Counted from the stretch's first letter, positions 3,739-64,000 are shown. The stretch is DNA of 64,000 bases from Tagaea sp. (GCA_965279525.1 CBDIIB010000005.1:288001-352000); one strand, 5' to 3'. Notes: a model not told the origin generated them from the letters alone. Numbers and translations: made by a program.

Positions 3739-5943
3739 ATGCCGCTCCCCCGCCTTTCCGCCCCGCTGTCCGACGCGACGGTGAACCCCGCGCCTCCGCT
3801 GAGCGCCGATCCCGATGCGGCCCCGCCGCAGCGGCTCGAGGTCGTGTCCGATTTCAAGCCCGCCGGCGACCAGCCGGCGGCGATCGCCGAAATCACGCAA
3901 GGCCTGCTGCGCGGCGAAAAGGACCAGGTCCTGCTCGGTGTCACGGGTTCCGGCAAGACCTTCACGATGGCGCATGCGATCCAGAACCTGCAGCGCCCCG
4001 CCCTGATCCTCGCCCCCAACAAGACTCTCGCCGCCCAGCTCTACGGCGAGATGAAGCTGTTCTTTCCGAACAACGCGGTCGAGTATTTCGTCAGCTATTA
4101 CGACTATTACCAGCCCGAGGCGTACGTGCCGCGCTCGGACACGTATATCGAGAAGGAAAGCTCGGTCAACGAGCAGATCGACCGGATGCGCCATTCGGCG
4201 ACGCGCGCCCTGCTCGAGCGGCAGGACACGATCATCGTCGCGTCGGTGAGCTGCATCTACGGCATCGGCTCGGTCGAGACCTATTCGTCGATGACGCTGA
4301 AGCTGGCCGCAGGCCAGCGCATGGACCGCAACGAACTGCTGCGCGAGCTGGTAAAGCTCCAGTACAAGCGAAACGAGGTCGCCTTCCAGCGCGGCACGTT
4401 CCGCGCGCGCGGCGACGCGGTCGAGATCTTCCCGGCGCACTGCGAAGACCGCGCGTGGCGCGTGTCGATGTTCGGCGACGAGATCGAGGCGATCTGGGAG
4501 TTCGATCCGCTGACCGGCGAGAAGAAGGCCACGCTGGAATCGGCCAAGCTCTACGCCAATTCGCACTACGTCACGCCGCAGCCCACGCTCGATCAGGCGA
4601 TCTCGCAGATCAAGATCGAGCTCAAGTCGCGGCTGGCCGAGCTCAACGCGGCGGGCAAGCTGGTGGAAGCGCAGCGCCTGGAGCAGCGCACGACATTCGA
4701 CGTCGAGATGATGGCAGCGACCGGCAGCTGCGCCGGCATCGAGAACTATTCGCGCTTCCTGACCGGCCGCAAGCCGGGCGAACCGCCACCCACACTGTTC
4801 GAGTACCTGCCCAAGAATGCCGTGCTGATCTGCGACGAGAGTCACGTGATGGTTCCGCAAATCGGCGGCATGTACAAGGGCGACTACGCGCGCAAATCGA
4901 CGCTGTCGGAATACGGTTTCCGCTTGCCGTCCTGCATCGACAACCGCCCCCTCAAATTCGAGGAATGGGACGCGATGCGCCCGCAGACGGTGTTCGTGTC
5001 TGCCACGCCCGGCCCGTGGGAACTGGAACGCACCAAGGGCGTGTTCGTCGAGCAGGTCATCCGTCCCACCGGTCTTGTCGATCCGCCCTGCGAGATCCGC
5101 CCGACCGAGCGGCAGGTCGACGACCTGCTGGGAGAACTCAAGGCGCTCGCAAAGAGAGGCATGCGCGCACTGGTCACCACGCTGACCAAGCGCATGGCCG
5201 AGGACCTGACCGAATACCTGCACGAGAACGGCGTGCGCGTGCGCTACATGCACTCGGACGTCGAGACGCTCGAACGCATCGAGATCATCCGCGACCTGCG
5301 CCTTGGCGCCTTCGACGCGCTGATCGGCATCAACCTGCTGCGCGAGGGCCTCGACATCCCCGAATGCGGGCTAGTGGCGATCCTCGACGCCGACAAGGAG
5401 GGCTACCTGCGTTCGCGCACGTCGCTGATCCAGACGATCGGGCGCGCCGCGCGCAACGTCGACGGCCGCGTGATCCTCTACGCCGACAGGATGACCGATT
5501 CGATGAAGGCGGCACTGGCCGAAACCGACCGGCGACGGACCAAACAGGTCGCCTACAACACGGAACACGGCATCACGCCGGAATCGATCCGCAAGGGCAT
5601 CGGCGACATCCTGGGCAGCGTCTATGAGCGCGACCGCGTGACGGTCGGCACCGGCGACGACGGCACGCCCCATCTGGTGGGCCATAATCTGCGTGCCCAC
5701 ATTGCCGCCCTCGAAGGGCGCATGCGCGACGCGGCCGCCAATCTCGAATTCGAGGAAGCGGCACGCCTGCGCGACGAGATCAAGCGCCTCGAGGCGATGG
5801 AGATGGAACTGCCCGGCGCCCCCAACGGCAAGGGCGGCTACAACCCGACCGAAGGGGCTGCTCGCCCGCGCTCGACCGGTGGCGCCGTCAATTCGCGCAA
5901 GGGCCGCGCCCGGCGGCCCCCGCCGGGCGGTGCGCGCAAGTGA
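3739..5943 (+). CDS. uvrB: excinuclease ABC subunit B
   Basis: GVTGSGKT Walker [11 protein letters not shown] beta-hairpin, DESH, C-terminal UVR domain. Confidence 0.97.
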
Positions 5944-7139
5944 AGCCGATCTTCCTGCCGCTCGGCACGACGCTGGCGGTGCAGGTGCTGGCAAGCGGGG
6001 CAAGCCTGACCGCCGCAGTGCTGGCCCCGCTCATCAGCGCCGATCTGGGCGTGCCGGCGTCGAGCGTCGGTTTCTACGTGGCCTTGCTCTATGGGTCGGC
6101 GGCGGTGGCTGGCCTGGCGAGCGGCGGCATCATCGCGCGCTTCGGTCCGCTGCGAACGATGCAGAGCGGCCTCGTGTTCGGCGCCCTTGCCGCCCTGTCG
6201 CTTTCCCATGCCTCGCTGCCCGGTGCGATGCTCGCGGCATTGCTCGGCGGCTTCAGCCTGGGGCCGACGACGCCGGCCTCTTCGGCAATCCTCGCGCGCG
6301 CGACCGATCCTTCGAACCGCAACCTCGTCTTCTCGATAAAGCAGACGGGCGTGCCGGCCGGATTCATGGTCGCCGCCCTCGGTCTGCCGCAACTCGCCCT
6401 CGCGTTCGGCTGGCGGGGTGCGTGCCTGTGCGTGGCGGCACTGCTCGCCTTGGCCGCGATCGCGGTAACCCCGCTGCGTCCCCGCTTCGACGACCGGCGC
6501 GAAGGCTCCACGCTCTTCTCGCCGCGCGCCCAGCTCGTCGATCCGCTGGTGCGCGTCTGGCGACAGGTCGAGATGCGCAATATCTCGTTCGCGTCCTTCG
6601 CCTATTCGGGCCTGCAGGGATCGCTCGCGGGCTTCATGATCGTCTTCCTGCTGCACGACACCAAGCTCGACCTCGTCGCCGCCGCCGCGGTGCTGGCCTG
6701 CGCGCAGGCCGCCGGCATCGGGGGCCGTGTCGTCTGGGGGTTCGTCGCAGACCGGCTTGGCCGGCCGGGCACCGTGCTCGCCGCACTCGGCATCGCGATG
6801 GCGGGGTTCGCGGCCTTGATGGCGCTCGGTGCTTCGACGATGCCCTACGGCGTGCTGATTGCCGCCAGCATCGCGTTCGGCGGAACGGCGATGGCCTGGA
6901 ACGGCGTGTTCCTGGGCGAAGTGGCGCGCCTCGCCGCACCCGGACGCACCGGCGAGGCGACGGGTGCGACCGGCCTTTTCACGTTCGGCGGTGTCGCCAT
7001 CGTGCCTGGAATATTCACCACGATCGTTTTCGCGACCGACAGCTATGTCGCGGCCTATCTTCTTGCCGGTGCGCTGCCGGGGCTCGTGGGCATCGCGCTG
7101 TTGCGCGGGCGCACGCATGCGGGCATATCGGAACGATGA
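5940..7139 (+). CDS. MFS transporter
   Basis: 399 aa with many hydrophobic helices, [11 protein letters not shown] motif; coupled to the uvrB stop. Confidence 0.85.
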
Positions 7140-10639: not shown

Positions 10640-11266
10640 ATGGGCTTTTCCCTCCCGATGTGGCTCACGCTGAGCCGTATTGTCGCAATCCCGGTCATCG
10701 TTGCCCTTTTCTGGCTGGAGGGCGACGAATGGCGCTATGTCGCGTGTGCGGTCTATGCAGTTGCCGCCGTGACCGACTGGCTCGACGGCTATCTCGCGCG
10801 CGCGTGGGCACAGCAATCGAAGCTCGGCCGCATCTTCGATCCCATCGCCGACAAACTGCTCGTTTCCGCCACGATCCTGATGCTTGTCGCGTTTGGCCGT
10901 GTCGCCGGCTTTTCGGTGCTTGCGGCCCTCGTGATCCTGCTGCGCGAAGTCCTGGTCTCGGGCCTGCGCGAGTTCCTTGCGGAGATCCGGGTCGGCCTGC
11001 CGGTTTCCAAGCTCGCCAAGTGGAAGACCGGGATCCAGATGGGCGCCCTCGGGATCCTGATCGTCGGCGATGCCGGGCCGACAGCGTTCCTGCCTGTCAC
11101 GGTTCTCGGAGAGTTGGGCCTATGGATCGCGGCGGCACTGACGCTCTACACCGGCTACGACTATCTCGCGACCGGGCTCAAGCATGTCGACGAGGAGGAT
11201 GAGCCCGCCGTTGCCCCGACCGCGCCGCCGCCCGCGACAGCCGACGCCGCCCGCCGCTCGGCCTGA
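10640..11266 (+). CDS. pgsA: CDP-diacylglycerol--glycerol-3-phosphate 3-phosphatidyltransferase
   Basis: TDWLDGYLAR...GRIFDPIADK motif; follows uvrC. Confidence 0.93.
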   Translation: MGFSLPMWLTLSRIVAIPVIVALFWLEGDEWRYVACAVYAVAAVTDWLDGYLARAWAQQSKLGRIFDPIADKLLVSATILMLVAFGRVAGFSVLAALVILLREVLVSGLREFLAEIRVGLPVSKLAKWKTGIQMGALGILIVGDAGPTAFLPVTVLGELGLWIAAALTLYTGYDYLATGLKHVDEEDEPAVAPTAPPPATADAARRSA

Positions 11267-11778
11267 TGGCCATGCGTGTTTTCGGGTTGGCAGGCTGGAG
11301 CGGCAGCGGCAAGACGACACTGGTCGTGAAGCTGATCCCCGAACTCGTCCGGCGCGGCATCAGCGTGTCGACGATCAAGCACGCGCATCATGCGTTCGAC
11401 GTCGATCAGCCCGGCAAGGACAGTTTCGAGCATCGTCAGGCGGGTGCCAGCGAAGTGCTTGTCGCGTCGGCGAACCGGTTCGCGCTGATGCGCGAGCATC
11501 GCGGCGCACCGGAGCCGGGGCTCGAGGCGTTGCTGGCACGTCTGGCACCCGTCGACCTCGTGCTGGTCGAAGGCTTCAAGCGCGACCACCACGACAAGCT
11601 CGAGATCCATCGGCCGTCGCTCGGCAAGCCGCTGCTGGCCAATGAAGATCCGCACATCGTCGCGGTCGCCAGCGACGCGCCGGTCGCCGGCCTGCGCGTA
11701 CCGCTGCTCGCCCTTGGTGACATCCCGGCGATCGCCGAATTCGTGCTGGCCCGCACGCGACTGGCCGGAGCCGCCTGA
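11266..11778 (+). CDS. mobB: molybdopterin-guanine dinucleotide biosynthesis protein B
   Basis: GWSGSGKTT, IKHAHH, PGKDS, VLVEGFK. Confidence 0.93.
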   Translation: MAMRVFGLAGWSGSGKTTLVVKLIPELVRRGISVSTIKHAHHAFDVDQPGKDSFEHRQAGASEVLVASANRFALMREHRGAPEPGLEALLARLAPVDLVLVEGFKRDHHDKLEIHRPSLGKPLLANEDPHIVAVASDAPVAGLRVPLLALGDIPAIAEFVLARTRLAGAA

Positions 11779-13034
11779 TGGCGCAGTTGTCGAACGACTG
11801 CTTTGCGTTCGGCGGAGAACTGATGCGGGCCGACGAGGCGCTGTCGATCCTCGCCGCACGCGCAATGCCGGTCGCGGGCATCGAACCGGCCAGTTTGCGA
11901 CAGGCCACGGGCCGCATCCTTGCCGAGGACATCGTCGCCGCCCGCAGCGTGCCGCCGCACGACAACGCGGCCGTCGACGGCTACGCCGTCCATTTCGACG
12001 ATCTGGTACCCGACGGCGAGACGCGCCTGCCGGTGCGCGGTCGCGCTGCGGCAGGGCACCCGATGGAAGGCCCTCAGCCGCGCGCAACGGCCGCACGTGT
12101 CTTCACGGGCGCGCTGATGCCCCAAGGCTCCGATACCGTTTTCATGCAGGAAGACGTCCGTATCGACGGCGCGTTCGCGATCCTGCCGCCCGGCCAGAAG
12201 CGCGGTGCGAACCGCCGCAAGGCCGGCGAGGACATCGCGGCGGGCAAGACCGTGCTTGCCGCCGGCCAGCGCCTGCGCGCACAGGATGTCGGACTCATCG
12301 CGTCGCTCGGCATCGTCGAGATCGCGGTGCGCGCCAGGCTGCGCGTTGCCGTCTTCTCGACCGGCGACGAACTGCGCGAGCCCGGCGCCGACGCGCCGCC
12401 AGGTTCAGTCTACGACGCCAACCGCTTCGCGCTGATGGCGCTGCTGGAGAAGGCCGGCTGCCAGGTCACCGATCTCGGCATCCTCGCCGACCGACGCGAC
12501 GTGGTTTCGGCTGCCCTCGCCGACGCTGCCGCCGCCCACGACGCGATCGTCACTTCCGGGGGCATGTCGACGGGAGACGAGGACCATGTCCGCGCCGCAG
12601 TCGAAGCCAACGGCAAGATCCATTTCTGGCGACTGGCGATCCGGCCCGGCCGGCCCGTCGCCTTCGGCACGATCGCAGGCAAGGCGTTTGTCGGGCTTCC
12701 GGGAAACCCGGTCGCGATGATGGTGACCTTCCTGCGTTTTGCCCGGCCTGTCCTGCTGCGCCTCTCGGGCGCTGCCGATATCGCCCCGCTCTCGTTCCGC
12801 GTGCGGACCGGCTTCGACATCCGCAAGAAGGAAGGACGGCGCGAATGGCTGCGCGCGCGCCTGACGGTCGACACCGACGGGATGCAGCTTGCGCGCCGTT
12901 TTCCGCGCGACGGAGCGGGCATCCTCACGTCGCTTGTCGAATCCGACGGACTCGTCGAGCTTGCGGAAAACGTGACGGACCTGCCGGCCGGTGCGATGGT
13001 CGACTTCCTGCCCTATTCGGAGCTCGTGTCGTGA
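11778..13034 (+). CDS. moeA: molybdopterin molybdotransferase
   Basis: DNAAVDGYA, STGDEL, TSGGMSTG, GLPGNPV. Confidence 0.93.
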   Translation: MAQLSNDCFAFGGELMRADEALSILAARAMPVAGIEPASLRQATGRILAEDIVAARSVPPHDNAAVDGYAVHFDDLVPDGETRLPVRGRAAAGHPMEGPQPRATAARVFTGALMPQGSDTVFMQEDVRIDGAFAILPPGQKRGANRRKAGEDIAAGKTVLAAGQRLRAQDVGLIASLGIVEIAVRARLRVAVFSTGDELREPGADAPPGSVYDANRFALMALLEKAGCQVTDLGILADRRDVVSAALADAAAAHDAIVTSGGMSTGDEDHVRAAVEANGKIHFWRLAIRPGRPVAFGTIAGKAFVGLPGNPVAMMVTFLRFARPVLLRLSGAADIAPLSFRVRTGFDIRKKEGRREWLRARLTVDTDGMQLARRFPRDGAGILTSLVESDGLVELAENVTDLPAGAMVDFLPYSELVS

Positions 13035-13282
13035 AGGTCCTCTGGTTTGCATGGCTGCGTACGCGCGTGGGTACGGGTGCGGAGGAGATCGATCCGCCGT
13101 CGGCGGTCGACGACGTGGCCAAGCTGCTCGACTGGCTTGCCGCACGTTCGCCCGGGCACGCCGAGGCGCTGGCCAAGCGCGCGGTGGTGCGCGTGGCGGT
13201 CAACCAGGAATACGTGAAACTCGACCACCCCGTGAAAAAGGGCGACGAGATCGCGATCTTCCCGCCGGTGACGGGAGGCTAG
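13031..13282 (+). CDS. moaD: molybdopterin synthase sulfur carrier subunit
   Basis: GTG start; ends GDEIAIFPPVTGG. Confidence 0.92.
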   Translation: MKVLWFAWLRTRVGTGAEEIDPPSAVDDVAKLLDWLAARSPGHAEALAKRAVVRVAVNQEYVKLDHPVKKGDEIAIFPPVTGG

Positions 13283-13284
13283 GC

Positions 13285-13731
13285 ATGGCCGTGCGCGTGC
13301 AACGCGAGGATTTCGATGTGGGCGCCGAACTCGCGGCGCTGACCGCCGGGCGCACCGACATCGGCGCGCTGACGAGCTTCGTCGGCCTCGTGCGCGACAT
13401 CGGCGGCGGCGCCATGACGCTCGAACACTATCCGGGCATGACCGAAAAGGAGCTTGCTGCGGTCGAGCGCGAAGCCAACGCGCGCTGGAAACTGTCGACT
13501 ACGCTGATCGTCCACCGCTATGGGCGACTCGATCCGGGCGACCGGATCGTTCTTTGTGCTGCCGCTTCGCCGCACCGGGAAGCCGCGTTCGAGGCCTGCC
13601 ATTTCCTGATCGACTGGCTCAAGACGAGAGCACCTTTCTGGAAGCTCGAGGAAACGCCGGAAGGCCCGCAGTGGGTCGAGGCGAAGGCCGACGACGACGC
13701 GGCGGCCGAACGATGGAAGGACCGCAGATGA
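13285..13731 (+). CDS. moaE: molybdopterin synthase catalytic subunit
   Basis: LEHYPGMT, HRYGRL, HREAAF, KTRAPFWKLE. Confidence 0.93.
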   Translation: MAVRVQREDFDVGAELAALTAGRTDIGALTSFVGLVRDIGGGAMTLEHYPGMTEKELAAVEREANARWKLSTTLIVHRYGRLDPGDRIVLCAAASPHREAAFEACHFLIDWLKTRAPFWKLEETPEGPQWVEAKADDDAAAERWKDRR

Positions 13732-60416: not shown

Positions 60417-60470
60417 CCGACGCGGCGGATTTGGATCCGGCGAACGATGGCCGGACGCCGGCATCCGGAC

Positions 60471-60540
60471 AAAAAGAAAGGGCCGCGCCCGAAGGCACGG
60501 CCCAAGTTTAGGGAGGAAACGCCCACGAAACGGCCCGGAG
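60471..60540 (-). ncRNA. suhB/MmgR (alpha-r8)-like small RNA
   Basis: Reverse strand GGGCGTTTCCTCCCTAAACTTGGGCCG core, then a GC hairpin and U-tract; near N-formylglutamate amidohydrolase. 5' end approximate. Confidence 0.7.
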
Positions 60541-60552
60541 GCCATTTCGAGC

Positions 60553-60572
60553 TGCGACAAATCAATGTCGCA
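60553..60572. promoter_or_regulatory. palindromic operator upstream of the sRNA
   Basis: TGCGACA-N6-TGTCGCA perfect inverted repeat. Confidence 0.55.
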
Positions 60573-61053: not shown

Positions 61054-61584
61054 ATGACGTCAATCCGCACGATAGCTCTAGTCATTTTCGGGCTGTTTAT
61101 TGGCGCCGCAAGTCCTTCTGGGCTCGCGTCCGAACCCTTGCCTAAGGGTTTCTTTGAGCTTCGAAATCTGGAGTTTTCTACATCGTTTCAGGATGAAACC
61201 GGGCGACCGGTATCTTTAGAAAGTTTTCGAGGAAGAGTTGTGGTTCTGAATTTATGGGCAACATGGTGCGCGCCCTGTATCAAAGAGATGCCATCTCTAG
61301 ATCGGCTCTCGAAAGTACTCCCTGCCGATAAATTCGCGGTCGTAGCAGTGAGTCAAGACAATGCCGGTGTCCTCGTAGCGAAGCCTTTTTTGGCTAAACT
61401 TGGCGTGATGATGGTCAATTCCTATTTTGATCCAAGGGGCCGTGTATCACGGGACCTCAGCGCAAGAGGGCTTCCCACAACCGTCATTGTTAGCAGCAAG
61501 GGGACGTTAATTTCGCGCCTCGAAGGCGCGATTGAATGGGACGCGCAAGAGGTGGTTTCGTACCTTAAGTCGCTTACTCATTAG
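61054..61584 (+). CDS. TlpA/ResA-family thiol:disulfide oxidoreductase
   Basis: N-terminal signal/anchor, VLNLWATWCAPCIKEMP, GLPTT cis-Pro loop. Confidence 0.9.
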   Translation: MTSIRTIALVIFGLFIGAASPSGLASEPLPKGFFELRNLEFSTSFQDETGRPVSLESFRGRVVVLNLWATWCAPCIKEMPSLDRLSKVLPADKFAVVAVSQDNAGVLVAKPFLAKLGVMMVNSYFDPRGRVSRDLSARGLPTTVIVSSKGTLISRLEGAIEWDAQEVVSYLKSLTH

Positions 61585-61647
61585 CCTTGCCCTCCTCTGT
61601 TGTTTCCCTTAAAGTTTTTTTAAGTTAATTTTGTGTGGGGGAACGCC

Positions 61648-61995
61648 ATGAAACTATTGGTTGGTTTTGTCTTTGCGGTATTCGCACTTTTTGCGGTCGC
61701 AAACCCTCCTGCCAATGCATCTGACGGATGCGTTGTGATAAAGTCTTCGCAATTGATGGCAGCCGAAATCAATGAATTGGGCTCGCCAGACGCAAAGTTC
61801 GCCATCGCCTCTTTGGAATCTTTCGCCAATGGAGCTGTTGAGAAGATTGCCAAAGAATCATCGGTCGGCAATCAAGGAAGCACCATTCAACTCGCTCAAA
61901 GCCGTAGCACCGGCTGCTCTTCCGGTTGCTCCAACGGGTGCTCCACCGGTTGCTCTGTCGGTTGTTCCGTTGGCTGTTCAGTAGGTTGTCGATAG
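61648..61995 (+). CDS. secreted Cys-rich CXXX-repeat protein (putative RiPP-like precursor)
   Basis: Signal peptide ending ANA; C-terminus STGCSSGCSNGCSTGCSVGCSVGCSVGCR; synonymous codon variation across the repeats indicates coding. Confidence 0.8.
   Translation: MKLLVGFVFAVFALFAVANPPANASDGCVVIKSSQLMAAEINELGSPDAKFAIASLESFANGAVEKIAKESSVGNQGSTIQLAQSRSTGCSSGCSNGCSTGCSVGCSVGCSVGCR
61912..61992 (+). repeat. 12-nt period tandem repeat encoding (GCSx)6-GCR
   Basis: ggctgctcttcc ggttgctccaac gggtgctccacc ggttgctctgtc ggttgttccgtt ggctgttcagta ggttgtcga. Confidence 0.9.
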
Positions 61996-62027
61996 TTGAT
62001 CCAGTGTCGTTAGTTTCTCAGTAGCTA

Positions 62028-64000
62028 TTGGCGAGTTTATCGACACATGCACGGCCCGGTTGGCAAGACCGGGCCGTTTGCATTTGGGCCGTAGCACTCA
62101 CAGCCACCTCGGCTTTTGCTATAGTTGATGCCAGTGAAGTTGCCGCACATTCCGCCGCGCTAGTTGGATTTCTTTTCCCGTCCAGGACTAGCCAAATTAG
62201 GCGAGTGGTATTGGTGCTCTTGGCAACAATTGGTTGGATGTTCGGTCCAACGTCTCTAATTGCTACAACTACGGGAATGCTTCTGATCGTTGCTATGGCA
62301 GATACAGCCATCGCCTTTGCATTTGCGATATGCACATGCGCATTTCTAGGTCACCACTTTCAGTCAATCGAGAGAATTTCGGGGCTAACTTTTCATATAG
62401 GCTCTTCGCCGTTTATTATTCTTCCTGCAATTGTCGCCTGCACATCTCTCAATTGGCGAATTGGATGGAGTGGCGTTCTCACTATCTTACTAGCCGCTAC
62501 AACTGTGCTCATCGGTATAAATTTGTCGGCAGCAATATGGATCAATCACAACACTTTGACATCTCAATATTTCCGACTGGCGGCTTCCGTGCTGCCGATT
62601 GCTATCGCAGCGCTCGCAGTTAGTTCGGGATCTACGCAATGCTTAAAAATGCCTTCTGTCTTTTGGATGCTCGGCGGCGTGACTATTGGCGCACTAGTCA
62701 CATTTGCTGCGCCCCAGTTTCCAGTCTCCCAGATCGTTTTTGACGAGGCTCATGGTCGCTGGGAAACCGTCAGGGCAACATTCGGTCCTAACGATTTCGG
62801 ACGCAGCGCAAACTACACATATAGCCTTCTAGAAAGGCATGCTGATCGTCTCGTAGGTTCTACTACCCTGGACAATGAGGGGGATTCGTTACCCCCCCAT
62901 GCCCTATTTGTATTGAAAATGCCCACAACGGCACTTTCAGATGAATTTTCCAGCCGACTTTATCAATGGATTTCCGATGGAGGGCGCCTATTGGTAGTGG
63001 CCGACCACACTGACCTCTACGACACTACTCAGAACTTGAATTTGTTTTTGCAGCTACTAGGCGTCAGCATAAATTCGGACGCGGTGTTTGATACGCGCGG
63101 AATGCCGACCGTCCCTGAGACGGAACAGTTCGCCTTTTTTCTGGGCCGCATAGACGCTTACGCAAAACCGCTTCCTTGGCAGACGGGTGCAAGCTTCGGA
63201 AGATTGCCCGCGAACGCCGTGGAGTTAGCGTCCTATGGGCCATCTTTCTCGGAGCCCGGCGACTATTCTCGCCCGAATCGCTTTGGCCCCTTCTTGCCAC
63301 GCTCCACTCTTCGCTTCACAAAACATACGGCAGTTGCGGCCTTCTCTGTTGGGGCGGGAGCAGTTGCCATCATTCTTGACAGCACGCCGTGGTCAAATTT
63401 TTCGATCTTTATTGACCAATATACGCGACTATTCCGATCTATCGTTTTCGCACTAAGCAATCCTATCGCAATAAAAATCTGGGGGTGGGCCGCACTGCTT
63501 CTGCCAATTGCGGGCATAGCTGTTCTGGTTTGGAGAACACGCACGATACTTGTTCTAGGTGGCGCCGTATTAGGTCTTGTCGTTGGTGCAGCTAGCCAGA
63601 TTGGTGCCCTATCTCATTTAATGCCGGTTGAGGGGCGGGATTTTGGATTGAAAGTTCAACTAGGAAACTCCGCTCGACTGGAGTTCTTGAAGCAACTTGT
63701 TGGGTCAGGAGACCGAAATTTTTCGCGAATTATTTCTGCCATGGCGAAGTACGGCCTTAATCCTTCGGCAGAGCTCCCAGGCACTGATGCTCAAACAATT
63801 TCTACCGCGAAGCGATGGCTTTTTATTCAGCCAGAGTTTCGCACTCTTCCAAATATTCAAGTCGTCCTGCGTCACCTCAAGGCTGGTGGCGATCTCACAA
63901 TTCTGTTTGGCCCAGAACAAGGGCAGAGCATGGAAATCGAAACTTGGCTGCGTTCGTTAGGGCTTAATTTGCGAAAGACTGTGGCGTTAGCTGTAGCAGA
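62028..64000 (+). CDS. large multi-pass membrane protein with extracytoplasmic domain (DUF4350/GATase-like), partial
   Basis: Absent from the ORF track because it has no stop in the window. The frame is open from TTG 62028 to the end. Several TM segments precede VFDEAHGRWE, LKMPT, GGRLLVVADHTD and DSTPWSNF. Start uncertain. Confidence 0.75.
   Translation, partial: MASLSTHARPGWQDRAVCIWAVALTATSAFAIVDASEVAAHSAALVGFLFPSRTSQIRRVVLVLLATIGWMFGPTSLIATTTGMLLIVAMADTAIAFAFAICTCAFLGHHFQSIERISGLTFHIGSSPFIILPAIVACTSLNWRIGWSGVLTILLAATTVLIGINLSAAIWINHNTLTSQYFRLAASVLPIAIAALAVSSGSTQCLKMPSVFWMLGGVTIGALVTFAAPQFPVSQIVFDEAHGRWETVRATFGPNDFGRSANYTYSLLERHADRLVGSTTLDNEGDSLPPHALFVLKMPTTALSDEFSSRLYQWISDGGRLLVVADHTDLYDTTQNLNLFLQLLGVSINSDAVFDTRGMPTVPETEQFAFFLGRIDAYAKPLPWQTGASFGRLPANAVELASYGPSFSEPGDYSRPNRFGPFLPRSTLRFTKHTAVAAFSVGAGAVAIILDSTPWSNFSIFIDQYTRLFRSIVFALSNPIAIKIWGWAALLLPIAGIAVLVWRTRTILVLGGAVLGLVVGAASQIGALSHLMPVEGRDFGLKVQLGNSARLEFLKQLVGSGDRNFSRIISAMAKYGLNPSAELPGTDAQTISTAKRWLFIQPEFRTLPNIQVVLRHLKAGGDLTILFGPEQGQSMEIETWLRSLGLNLRKTVALAVA
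62051..62077 (+). terminator. stem-loop downstream of the Cys-repeat gene
   Basis: ACGGCCCGGT-tggcaag-ACCGGGCCGT perfect 10-bp stem followed by TTGCATTT. Confidence 0.55.

Follow-up and report, generated by a model that had tools for sequence, protein, structure and literature searches.

The DNA analysed here, referred to as the window, is a 64,000-nucleotide stretch of Tagaea sp. (GCA_965279525.1, contig CBDIIB010000005.1, abbreviated C5; C5:288001-352000). It belongs to a 4.35-Mb genome that is 97% complete, and the 34 kb that follow it were also taken into the analysis. The right-hand end of the window exhibits three co-oriented genes of low guanine-plus-cytosine (GC) content (about 0.50, against about 0.67 in the host), encoding a TlpA-like thiol:disulfide oxidoreductase, a small secreted protein with a periodic cysteine tail, and a large membrane protein designated M892 (Table 1). 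An earlier inspection of the same DNA (the sequence-only reading) had singled out these genes as a linked, horizontally acquired unit opening a cluster for a peptide made by the ribosome and modified after translation (RiPP), with a modifying enzyme (maturase) expected further downstream. The three genes are present as described, and their homologues co-occur in the same order at every related locus that could be assessed. The linked, acquired unit therefore stands, while the start of a RiPP-type cluster with a maturase does not. The genes form the 5' half of an envelope module of four to five genes, which is carried here as the cargo of a tyrosine-integrase island. Positions beyond the window are given in a locus numbering (L003) that runs past its end, L003 3051-3077 being identical to window positions 62051-62077.

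The first gene possesses the CxxC thioredoxin signature noted by the sequence-only reading, namely a WCAPC motif, together with Pfam matches above the cut-off to Redoxin (60.8 bits, cut-off 26.6) and AhpC-TSA (59.7 bits, cut-off 26). A hydrophobic segment at residues 1 to 19 suggests that the product resides in the periplasm. Against the NCBIfam TlpA equivalog NF047696, corresponding to the rhizobial TlpA proper, the protein scores 122 bits, under the cut-off of 230. Judged by these profile scores, it is an ordinary member of the TlpA/ResA/DsbE family and not the TlpA ortholog or a housekeeping TlpA. Members of the TlpA/ResA/CcmG family serve to reduce the cysteine pairs of exported client proteins. 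The host genome also encodes a DsbD_TM protein.

The most likely start of the second gene is the ATG at 61648, with GGGGGAA 7 nt upstream, giving a product of 115 aa; the mechanical open reading frame (ORF) from the GTG at 61633 corresponds to 120 aa. A hydrophobic core (residues 5-23 of the 120-aa form) points to a Sec-type signal peptide. It is followed by a spacer ending in IQLAQ and by the tail SRSTGCSSGCSNGCSTGCSVGCSVGCSVGCR, in which seven cysteines are exactly four residues apart. Of the repeat proposed earlier, the period of four is retained, and the register, given as GCSx, is corrected to S-x-G-C flanked by arginine. At the DNA level the array exhibits a 12-nt period (4 copies, 75% match). 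One additional cysteine, near the mature N-terminus, is not conserved. The protein has no Pfam or NCBIfam match at E <= 1, and hence belongs to no NCBIfam precursor family and to no Pfam metallothionein family.

A word-indexed search retrieved 79 clusters related to the cysteine protein at E <= 0.01, all unnamed and devoid of Pfam domains. An exhaustive hidden Markov model search of 1.84 billion representatives retrieved 109 at E <= 0.001, 55 of them at E <= 1e-10, nearly all being 95 to 130 aa long. The family alignment reveals a constant layout of signal peptide, a region with the motif EIxGLxxPDAKF, RS-x-GCS, and the repeats. Since so many relatives have an identical layout, the ORF is beyond chance. 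The statistics of the tail are based on 119 distinct tails (819 units) drawn from 133 small proteins, 14 of which lack a C-terminal SxGC tail by the pattern used. The first position of the unit is Ser (95.8%) or Thr (2.8%), the second is V/T/S/Y/M/N, the third is Gly (94.6%) and the fourth is Cys. Tails contain 4 to 10 units; Arg precedes the array in 96 of the 119 and is also the commonest residue after it. These figures give R-(S-x-G-C)n-R as the general form of the tail, each Cys being matched by one Ser/Thr. Within the class of the host, the family occurs in 2 of 401 sampled genomes, namely the present one and Rhodospirillaceae bacterium SYSU D60007 (G244). A literature search returned the repeat strings GCSTGCS, GCSSGCS and GCSVGCS in unrelated contexts only, and one on TlpA with cysteine-rich signal-peptide repeat proteins or RiPPs returned nothing relevant among the matches listed.

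Three further observations concern this gene. In a metagenome locus (L049), tandem cysteine-repeat genes (5283-5612 and 5609-5968) lie upstream of M892, their tails ending GCR and GCSRY. A 186-aa protein (P0067) on a 1,256-bp contig has a TlpA domain fused in frame directly to a (GCSx)7-GCR tail, and lacks the end of TlpA as well as the entire N-terminal region of the cysteine protein. The fusion is consistent with a functional link between TlpA and the tail; alternatively, it could be a natural deletion-fusion or an assembly artefact. Finally, a strong hairpin (11 pairs, 8 of them G-C) is located after the cysteine gene of the window, on the plus strand at 62051-62077, overlapping the first M892 codons. 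It could attenuate read-through and so set a high ratio of peptide to membrane protein. Terminator-like sites in the region are no more numerous than in shuffled sequences.

The ORF of the third gene, already recognized as coding for a membrane protein of more than 650 aa, is open to the end of the window and attains 892 aa in the genome. Its TTG start is backed by homologs aligning from residue 7-15 onward. Relatives number 161 at E <= 0.001, with 35-55% identity across phyla. The AlphaFold2 (AF2) model of M892 (pLDDT 87.5, pTM 0.87) starts with a bundle of transmembrane helices, for which neither the structure searches (best Z 7.6, a G-protein-coupled receptor) nor the Atlas (no usable hit for residues 1-232) provided a meaningful match. 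The soluble domain that follows (GIFT1) is matched by Pfam DUF4350 with 33.2 bits for the full protein and 31.3 bits for the form cut by the window (cut-off 30.4). Its best structural counterpart is IFT52 (5fms_A, Z 17.2, root-mean-square deviation (rmsd) 3.0, 211 aligned residues in VIA-align), with which Foldseek concurs; the C-terminal domain of site-1 protease (Z 16.6), OST48 (6s7o_G, Z 14.5), and ThuA-like proteins and GH42 trimerisation domains also match. In the model, the domain thus has a GIFT, or class-I amidotransferase-like, fold. Three motifs, FDE-HG-WE, ADHTD and DSTPWSNF, are invariant in an alignment of 38 relatives; among the invariant residues are D239/E240/H242, D326/H327/D329 and D451/S452. 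A transmembrane hairpin would then bring the chain back to the original side of the membrane, ahead of a 360-residue C-terminal region (pLDDT 81.2 when modelled alone). The latter begins with a second, GIFT-like domain (GIFT2, residues ~538-760, cut by the window end; OST48 Z 11.6, rmsd 4.6, 186 aligned; IFT52 Z 11.3). The last ~130 residues contain the invariant C835 and C844. Whole-chain fold searches are dominated by the GIFT domain, so that the missing matches for the bundle and for the last ~130 residues do not imply new folds. When the M892 family profile was compared with PDB sequences, IFT52 was the sole match (E = 0.011).

Directly 3' of M892, beyond the window, the island encodes a second membrane protein of 649 aa (M649) that has no Pfam match. 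BLASTP detects no similarity between the two (best E = 0.15). Comparison of their profiles with hhalign yields a probability of 93.9% and an E-value of 1.6e-7 over 325 columns, which take in the final part of the bundle together with the GIFT domain. By this profile alignment, M649 is a distant paralog of M892, aligning to its first GIFT domain. The invariant motifs are echoed in M649, with GEHTN for ADHTD and VGDNS for LDSTPWSN, so that [DE]-H-T-[DN] and D-[SN]-[ST] are common to both paralogs. The last loop preceding each GIFT domain is rich in Lys and Arg (1.8 per sequence), and the C-terminal domains of M892 and M649 each have an invariant cysteine pair. On the basis of these loops and cysteine pairs, the soluble domains are predicted to face the periplasm. 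Archaeal DUF4350 proteins are predicted to be extracellular (PMC5898192), in agreement with such an orientation. Literature searches on DUF4350 found nothing concerning the present module, and those on GIFT/GldG found nothing on such proteins among the matches listed.

Table 1. Features of the module and of the island boundaries (window positions unless stated otherwise)
Feature	Position	Strand	Basis and remarks
TlpA/ResA/DsbE-family thiol:disulfide oxidoreductase, 176 aa, WCAPC, N-terminal signal/anchor	61054..61584	+	Pfam, hydropathy
Cys-repeat secreted protein, 115 aa	61648..61995	+	ORF, sequence; ATG start, alternative GTG 61633
Predicted Sec signal peptide MKLLVGFVFAVFALFAVANPPANA	61648..61719	+	cleavage motif A-N-A; lacks a twin-arginine
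C-terminal thiol array R-(S-x-G-C)7-R	61903..61992	+	sequence
M892, polytopic membrane protein, residues 1-657 in window, 892 aa full	62028..64000 (ends L003 5706)	+	ORF
M892 N-terminal bundle, 7-8 transmembrane helices, residues 1-231	62028..62720	+	hydropathy, AF2
M892 GIFT1/DUF4350 domain, residues ~232-485	62721..63482	+	Pfam, VIA-align, Foldseek
M892 transmembrane hairpin, residues ~484-525	63477..63602	+	hydropathy; AF2 helices 479-502, 505-530
attL, left copy of 105-nt perfect direct repeat	60468..60572	.	repeat search; GC drop starts here
mmgR small RNA match (Rfam RF00519) within left repeat	60465..60549	-	cmscan
Right copy of 105-nt repeat, beyond window	L003 11843-11947 (C5:358843-358947)		repeat search

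The linkage of these genes was examined at the loci sampled with the alignment of 38 M892 relatives, 24 from named genomes and 41 from metagenomes, onto which the island proteins were mapped by tblastn and by the tail pattern. The genome loci comprise 10 full-length M892 relatives, the degraded copy of G244 and 13 distant loci with DUF4350 only; the metagenome loci comprise 32 M892 relatives and 9 distant ones, making 22 distant DUF4350 loci altogether. A cysteine-repeat gene is found immediately 5' of M892 in all assessable loci (9/9 from genomes and 27/27 from metagenomes, 36/36 in total), one genome locus and five metagenome loci starting inside M892 and being unjudgeable on this point. M649 is located directly 3' of M892 with the same regularity (10/10 and 21/21, or 31/31). 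Of the 9 genome loci that can be assessed for it, 8 have a TlpA gene (in one of them downstream, on the opposite strand), and one was found in 20 metagenome loci (19 upstream, 1 downstream). None was seen in two loci with 365-520 nt of upstream DNA, and others were too short to judge. The reductase is accordingly dedicated to the module, as the sequence-only reading had proposed. An adjacent gene with an SxGC tail is missing from all 22 distant DUF4350 loci.

The hosts are Alphaproteobacteria (two Bradyrhizobium, a Hyphomicrobiaceae, a Rhodospirillaceae and two uncultured Alphaproteobacteria), Candidatus Nitrotoga, Methylophilus, a Methylophilaceae single-amplified genome, and metagenome-assembled genomes (MAGs) of Cryomorphaceae and Chloroflexi. 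The module thus spans Alpha- and Betaproteobacteria, Bacteroidota and Chloroflexi, with a mobile-element context throughout. A search of 18 further species belonging to the genus of the host did not find M892. In G244 the module is decayed within a 2.5-kb low-GC islet (L012 ~11100-13400; also L023), keeping the TlpA gene, the cysteine gene and the first 279 residues of M892 (cut after the bundle), along with the small protein P146 described below; M649 is lost. At the Chloroflexi MAG locus (L022, 3874-5719), the homolog of M649 is broken up into a number of short ORFs, the cysteine tail ends GCQ, and no TlpA was found on the 6.5-kb contig. The flanks were surveyed with 103 flanking ORFs from 40 loci; the 25 commonest of the 76 families that matched include Resolvase (4), Sel1 (3), Phage_integrase (3), methylases, rve, DDE_3 and TraG_N. 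In Candidatus Nitrotoga (L017 6902-9181), an nSTAND3 NTPase and a DDE transposase lie directly 3' of the module, in a defence-island-like arrangement. The conserved order combined with the varied mobile-element flanks indicates that the module is a self-contained cargo cassette.

In Tagaea sp. this cassette resides in a 10,375-bp island bounded by 105-nt perfect direct repeats (2 copies, 100% identity, spacing 10375). The GC content of 0.65-0.70 upstream falls to 0.48-0.53 from about 60750 through the window end, the low-GC stretch being about 10.5 kb long. Each repeat matches the mmgR small RNA (sRNA) over model positions 1-77 of 77 (52.5 and 52.1 bits, gathering score 41). Because mmgR is full-length in each of them (60465-60572; L003 11840-11947), nearly the whole sRNA gene has been duplicated by integration, and the mmgR gene is the attachment site of the island. 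The mmgR copy adjoining the integrase retains host-side upstream DNA. A tRNA search found no tRNA at the island, and a literature search on mmgR with integrase or genomic island returned, among the matches listed, no paper linking mmgR to island integration. The genes are ordered as follows: the TlpA-like gene, the cysteine-repeat gene, M892, M649, P146, two small unmatched ORFs, a 481-aa protein and, at the far end, the tyrosine integrase (Phage_integrase, 80 bits; phrog_1).

P146 is a 146-aa protein (L003 7623-8063) having no signal peptide and no Pfam or PHROG match. Its nearest Atlas clusters are viral hypothetical proteins (0.94 and 0.92), and its profile exhibits a weak match, of value as a lead only, to TALE-type helical repeats around an LTPEQ motif (9jo8_A, E = 4.3e-5). 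P146 may be a DNA-binding regulator of the module. It occurs in 5 of 10 genome loci and in 6 metagenome loci, and is thus an accessory component; homologs were seen in loci L014, L015, L016, L019, L020 and L023. The 481-aa protein (L003 9087-10532, minus strand) has phrog_4756, of unknown function, as its sole match (E = 5e-38), and a relative 25% identical to it adjoins the module in a metagenome locus (L047, 6942-8276). Its probable role lies in the replication or mobility of this type of island.

These data bear directly on the RiPP cluster that had been foreseen, in which the maturase, protease and exporter would be encoded beyond the window or elsewhere in the genome. The period of four and the signal peptide do recall CXXX-repeat and bufferin-type precursors. 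However, the island ends 8 kb downstream, within the next 10 kb that were read, with neither maturase nor exporter. None of its proteins matches a Pfam radical SAM, MNIO, YcaO, Lan enzyme, peptidase or ABC (ATP-binding cassette) exporter family. The radical SAM/SPASM, MNIO, peptidase and ABC exporter genes that were to be sought beyond the window are likewise missing from the 25 commonest of the 76 flank families. The module crosses phyla without them and, while doing so, never carries a recognizable maturase, protease, ATPase or exporter. The cysteine protein matches no NCBIfam precursor model, CXXX-repeat precursors probably being covered by NCBIfam. A maturase acting in trans from elsewhere in the host was also considered and rejected. 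No MNIO (PF05114) is encoded in the host genome. The one radical SAM/SPASM gene that it has is found at a distance of 461 kb, next to a glycosyltransferase; this gene scores 49.8 bits with the best maturase model (cut-off 395) and falls far below all maturase cut-offs. A classical RiPP cluster is thus largely refuted, and we consider it very improbable.

The interpretation that we favour, while giving it somewhat less than an even chance, is that the cysteine protein provides, at the surface of the membrane, a reduced poly-thiol arm to which soft metals or thiol-reactive compounds bind. The protein would be exported unfolded by Sec, and the 4 to 10 thiols of its tail would be held reduced in the oxidising periplasm by the dedicated TlpA-like reductase, itself supplied with electrons by the DsbD/CcdA of the host. 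The conserved N-terminal region would dock it on a periplasm-facing M892/M649 heteromer at the outer face of the inner membrane. There the flexible reduced arm could bind, with high capacity, soft metals (Cu(I), Zn, Cd, Hg) or thiol-reactive compounds, and either sequester them or pass them on to M892 and M649. Of these steps, the chemistry of binding and the part played by the membrane pair are the least certain. The fixed cysteines, the Cys/Ser/Gly composition and the variation from 4 to 10 copies fit a function of capacity. The metal-binding peptide that the sequence-only reading had offered as an alternative is possible. Iron-sulphur binding by the tail was rejected, since its predicted export is of the Sec type, with no twin-arginine motif.

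The docking step was addressed by predicting the complex of M892 with the mature cysteine protein, which scored 0.51 against 0.00 for the best of 3 controls. Separate runs agreed on at least 44% of the contacts, and the pLDDT of the partner was at least 43. Among 80 solved complexes, 58 attain the pass mark of this score, as do 2 among 110 mismatched pairs; in the range up to 0.60, where the present value lies, only 7 of the 80 solved complexes passed, together with both of the passing mismatches. The predicted complex thus weakly suggests docking of the cysteine protein on M892.

Several observations weigh against a thiol arm of this kind. The complex score falls in the weak range, and the fold of the partner is itself uncertain. 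Neither the island nor the 25 commonest of the 76 flank families revealed a regulator that senses metals, a P-type ATPase, an RND pump or any other metal gene. With Ser (96%) and Gly (95%) nearly invariant and the period held strictly at four, the unit is tighter than simple metal chelation needs; such a constraint points to a defined structure or to an enzyme that recognizes the unit. Sequestration alone would need neither of the two membrane proteins, which surpass the other parts of the module in size and conservation. The GIFT fold is a scaffold in the known examples and is silent on chemistry, and the bundle of 7-8 helices is without an identified fold in the structure and Atlas searches. 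The topology of M892 and M649, finally, is a prediction from their sequences.

Because the S-x-G-C unit is so strict and two large membrane proteins are conserved, a modification pathway is retained beside the thiol arm, although we regard it as rather unlikely. In such a pathway, new in kind and extracytoplasmic, M892 and M649 would constitute an ATP-independent membrane maturase, acting after Sec export on an R-(S/T-x-G-C)n-R core or attaching groups to its thiols. The N-terminal region would be the leader docking on the membrane pair, TlpA would supply reduced thiols, and a site of Asp, Glu and His residues would be formed on the GIFT fold. The chemistry might be a ladder of thioethers from Ser/Thr to the Cys three residues on, or the addition of an exported cofactor, lipid or glycan to the reduced thiols, with a logic akin to System II cytochrome c biogenesis (ResA reductase with the ResB/ResC membrane synthase). 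Consistent with this, Ser/Thr and Cys are in a one-to-one ratio, the array opens with Ser after Arg and closes with Cys before Arg, and Thr replaces Ser in some units (e.g. P0247). Ser, Gly and the period are conserved beyond the needs of chelation, and a conserved leader-like region precedes the core. By the order of secondary structures in the AF2 model, the invariant D/E/H motifs of GIFT1 would fall at the loops that bear the active sites of flavodoxin-like folds. The motifs [DE]-H-T-[DN] and D-[SN]-[ST] are common to both paralogs, both large and highly conserved membrane proteins are always present, and the complex prediction (0.51 against 0.00), in its weak range, is in line with a docked substrate. 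However, no known catalytic fold is recognized, GIFT domains being non-catalytic scaffolds in IFT52, OST48 and GH42, and distant DUF4350 proteins devoid of a cysteine-repeat partner (22 loci) carry these D/E/H motifs as well. The periplasm lacks ATP for the dehydration or cyclodehydration carried out by known Lan and YcaO enzymes, and neither a heme-type CxxCH nor a ResB/CcsA domain is present.

The mobile context and the scaffold fold raise another, quite improbable, explanation, namely a structural or surface role. The cysteine protein would form a disulfide-crosslinkable block; TlpA would restrain or remodel its polymerisation, and the membrane platform would organise it. The product might be an adhesin, a mesh in the envelope, or a layer that serves entry exclusion or as a barrier and benefits the mobile element. 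The module is indeed always mobile-element cargo, and it adjoins the nSTAND3 gene in one locus; its repeat number varies, with a tandem gene duplication in L049, and GIFT domains are protein-protein scaffolds. On the other hand, the 6 island proteins compared with the PADLOC models of known anti-phage defence systems at E <= 0.01 matched 0 families (0/6). The small protein has no recognizable anchoring or sorting signal, the module has no secretion system or outer-membrane component, and the presence of a reductase argues for reduced thiols rather than disulfides.

No name, family model or paper for the cysteine-repeat family or for the module was found in the literature and family searches, in agreement with the earlier statement that no named system matches. 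The architecture appears to be new in kind, and its function we infer from sequences and models only. If the genes act as a unit, they would represent an undescribed extracytoplasmic thiol system, in which an encoded, exportable poly-thiol arm is combined with a reductase of its own and a membrane platform dedicated to it, and which mobile elements trade among bacteria of several phyla in soil and freshwater. Bacterial DUF4350/GIFT membrane proteins, the fold of which is otherwise known from IFT52 and the oligosaccharyltransferase subunit OST48, would also gain a first functional context. Should a modification be the true activity, a logic like that of RiPPs or of cytochrome c synthase would have been built from entirely new parts and spread by mobile elements. 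With four or five genes and no host-specific partner save DsbD/CcdA, the module could serve as a clean system for the buffering of metals or electrophiles in the periplasm or for a new post-export peptide chemistry. For RiPP genome mining it suggests caution, as a "precursor" with a leader and a cysteine repeat can belong to a conserved system without known maturase.

Individual components can be related to known systems. M892, with its two domains of the same fold, resembles GldG/ABC_transp_aux/DUF4350 proteins, IFT52 and OST48/Wbp1. GldG and OST48 are membrane-anchored with extracytoplasmic domains, as M892 would be by its predicted topology. Unlike DUF4350/GIFT proteins, M892 is fused to a bundle of 7-8 helices and paired with a paralog. 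In contrast to the distant DUF4350 loci, which lack a cysteine-repeat gene, it is always coupled to one. GldG has an ABC ATPase/permease partner, whereas M892 has none: there are no ABC genes on the island, and ABC_tran was found in only 1 of the 103 flanking ORFs. With the GldG equivalog TIGR03521, M892 scores 10.9 bits against a cut-off of 389.85. An assignment to GldG was ruled out on this score and on the lack of adjacent ABC genes. The reductase shares with TlpA, ResA and CcmG (DsbE) the thioredoxin-like Redoxin/AhpC-TSA domain, the WCxxC motif and an N-terminal export or anchor segment. In contrast to them, it is encoded on a mobile island beside a dedicated poly-cysteine client, and not associated with cytochrome or ScoI clients.

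Among cysteine-rich peptides, lanthipeptide, microcin B17-type (TOMM) and CXXX-repeat/ranthipeptide cores are alike in pairing Ser/Thr and Cys with Gly, and in a cysteine period of four. Lan, YcaO or radical SAM enzymes act on their precursors in the cytoplasm, and these precursors have no Sec signal. Unlike for lanthipeptides and TOMMs, neither Lan nor YcaO enzymes are found on the island or in the 25 commonest of the 76 flank families. A literature search on CXXX-repeat peptides with radical SAM returned no paper. The peptides of the bufferin/MNIO (DUF692) group have, as predicted here, a Sec signal on a small cysteine-bearing precursor that acts in the periplasm. They differ from the present system, which has a regular SxGC array, no MNIO on the island or in the host, and no DUF2063 partner on the island. 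Copper binding is reported for bufferins (PMC11626156, PMC11252979).

Metallothioneins, phytochelatins and the Csp copper-storage proteins are also rich in Cys, Ser and Gly, poor in aromatic residues, dense in thiols and variable in capacity. In Csp proteins, which can be periplasmic, the cysteines are about one helical turn apart. The present protein, which has no Pfam metallothionein match, differs from these in being at once gene-encoded, exported by Sec (as predicted) and strictly periodic in S-x-G-C, with a dedicated reductase and membrane partners. Another parallel to a reduced arm is SoxY with SoxS/SoxW, in which a cysteine on a flexible Gly-rich C-terminal arm is kept reduced by dedicated periplasmic thioredoxins. 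In contrast to the single Cys of GGCGG in SoxY, 4 to 10 units are present here; the module contains no Sox genes, and there is no sequence similarity.

The likeness of the module to SoxY and its thioredoxins, to bufferins, to metallothioneins and to System II cytochrome c biogenesis (ResA-ResB-ResC/CcsBA) is one of logic or composition only. With System II the analogy is of logic: the cysteine protein has no CxxCH, and M892 and M649 have no Pfam ResB or CcsA/WWD domain, their putative periplasmic domains being of the GIFT type. What the two systems share is an architecture, in which two polytopic membrane proteins with large periplasmic domains (here by prediction) accompany a dedicated TlpA-like reductase and an exported cysteine-bearing substrate.

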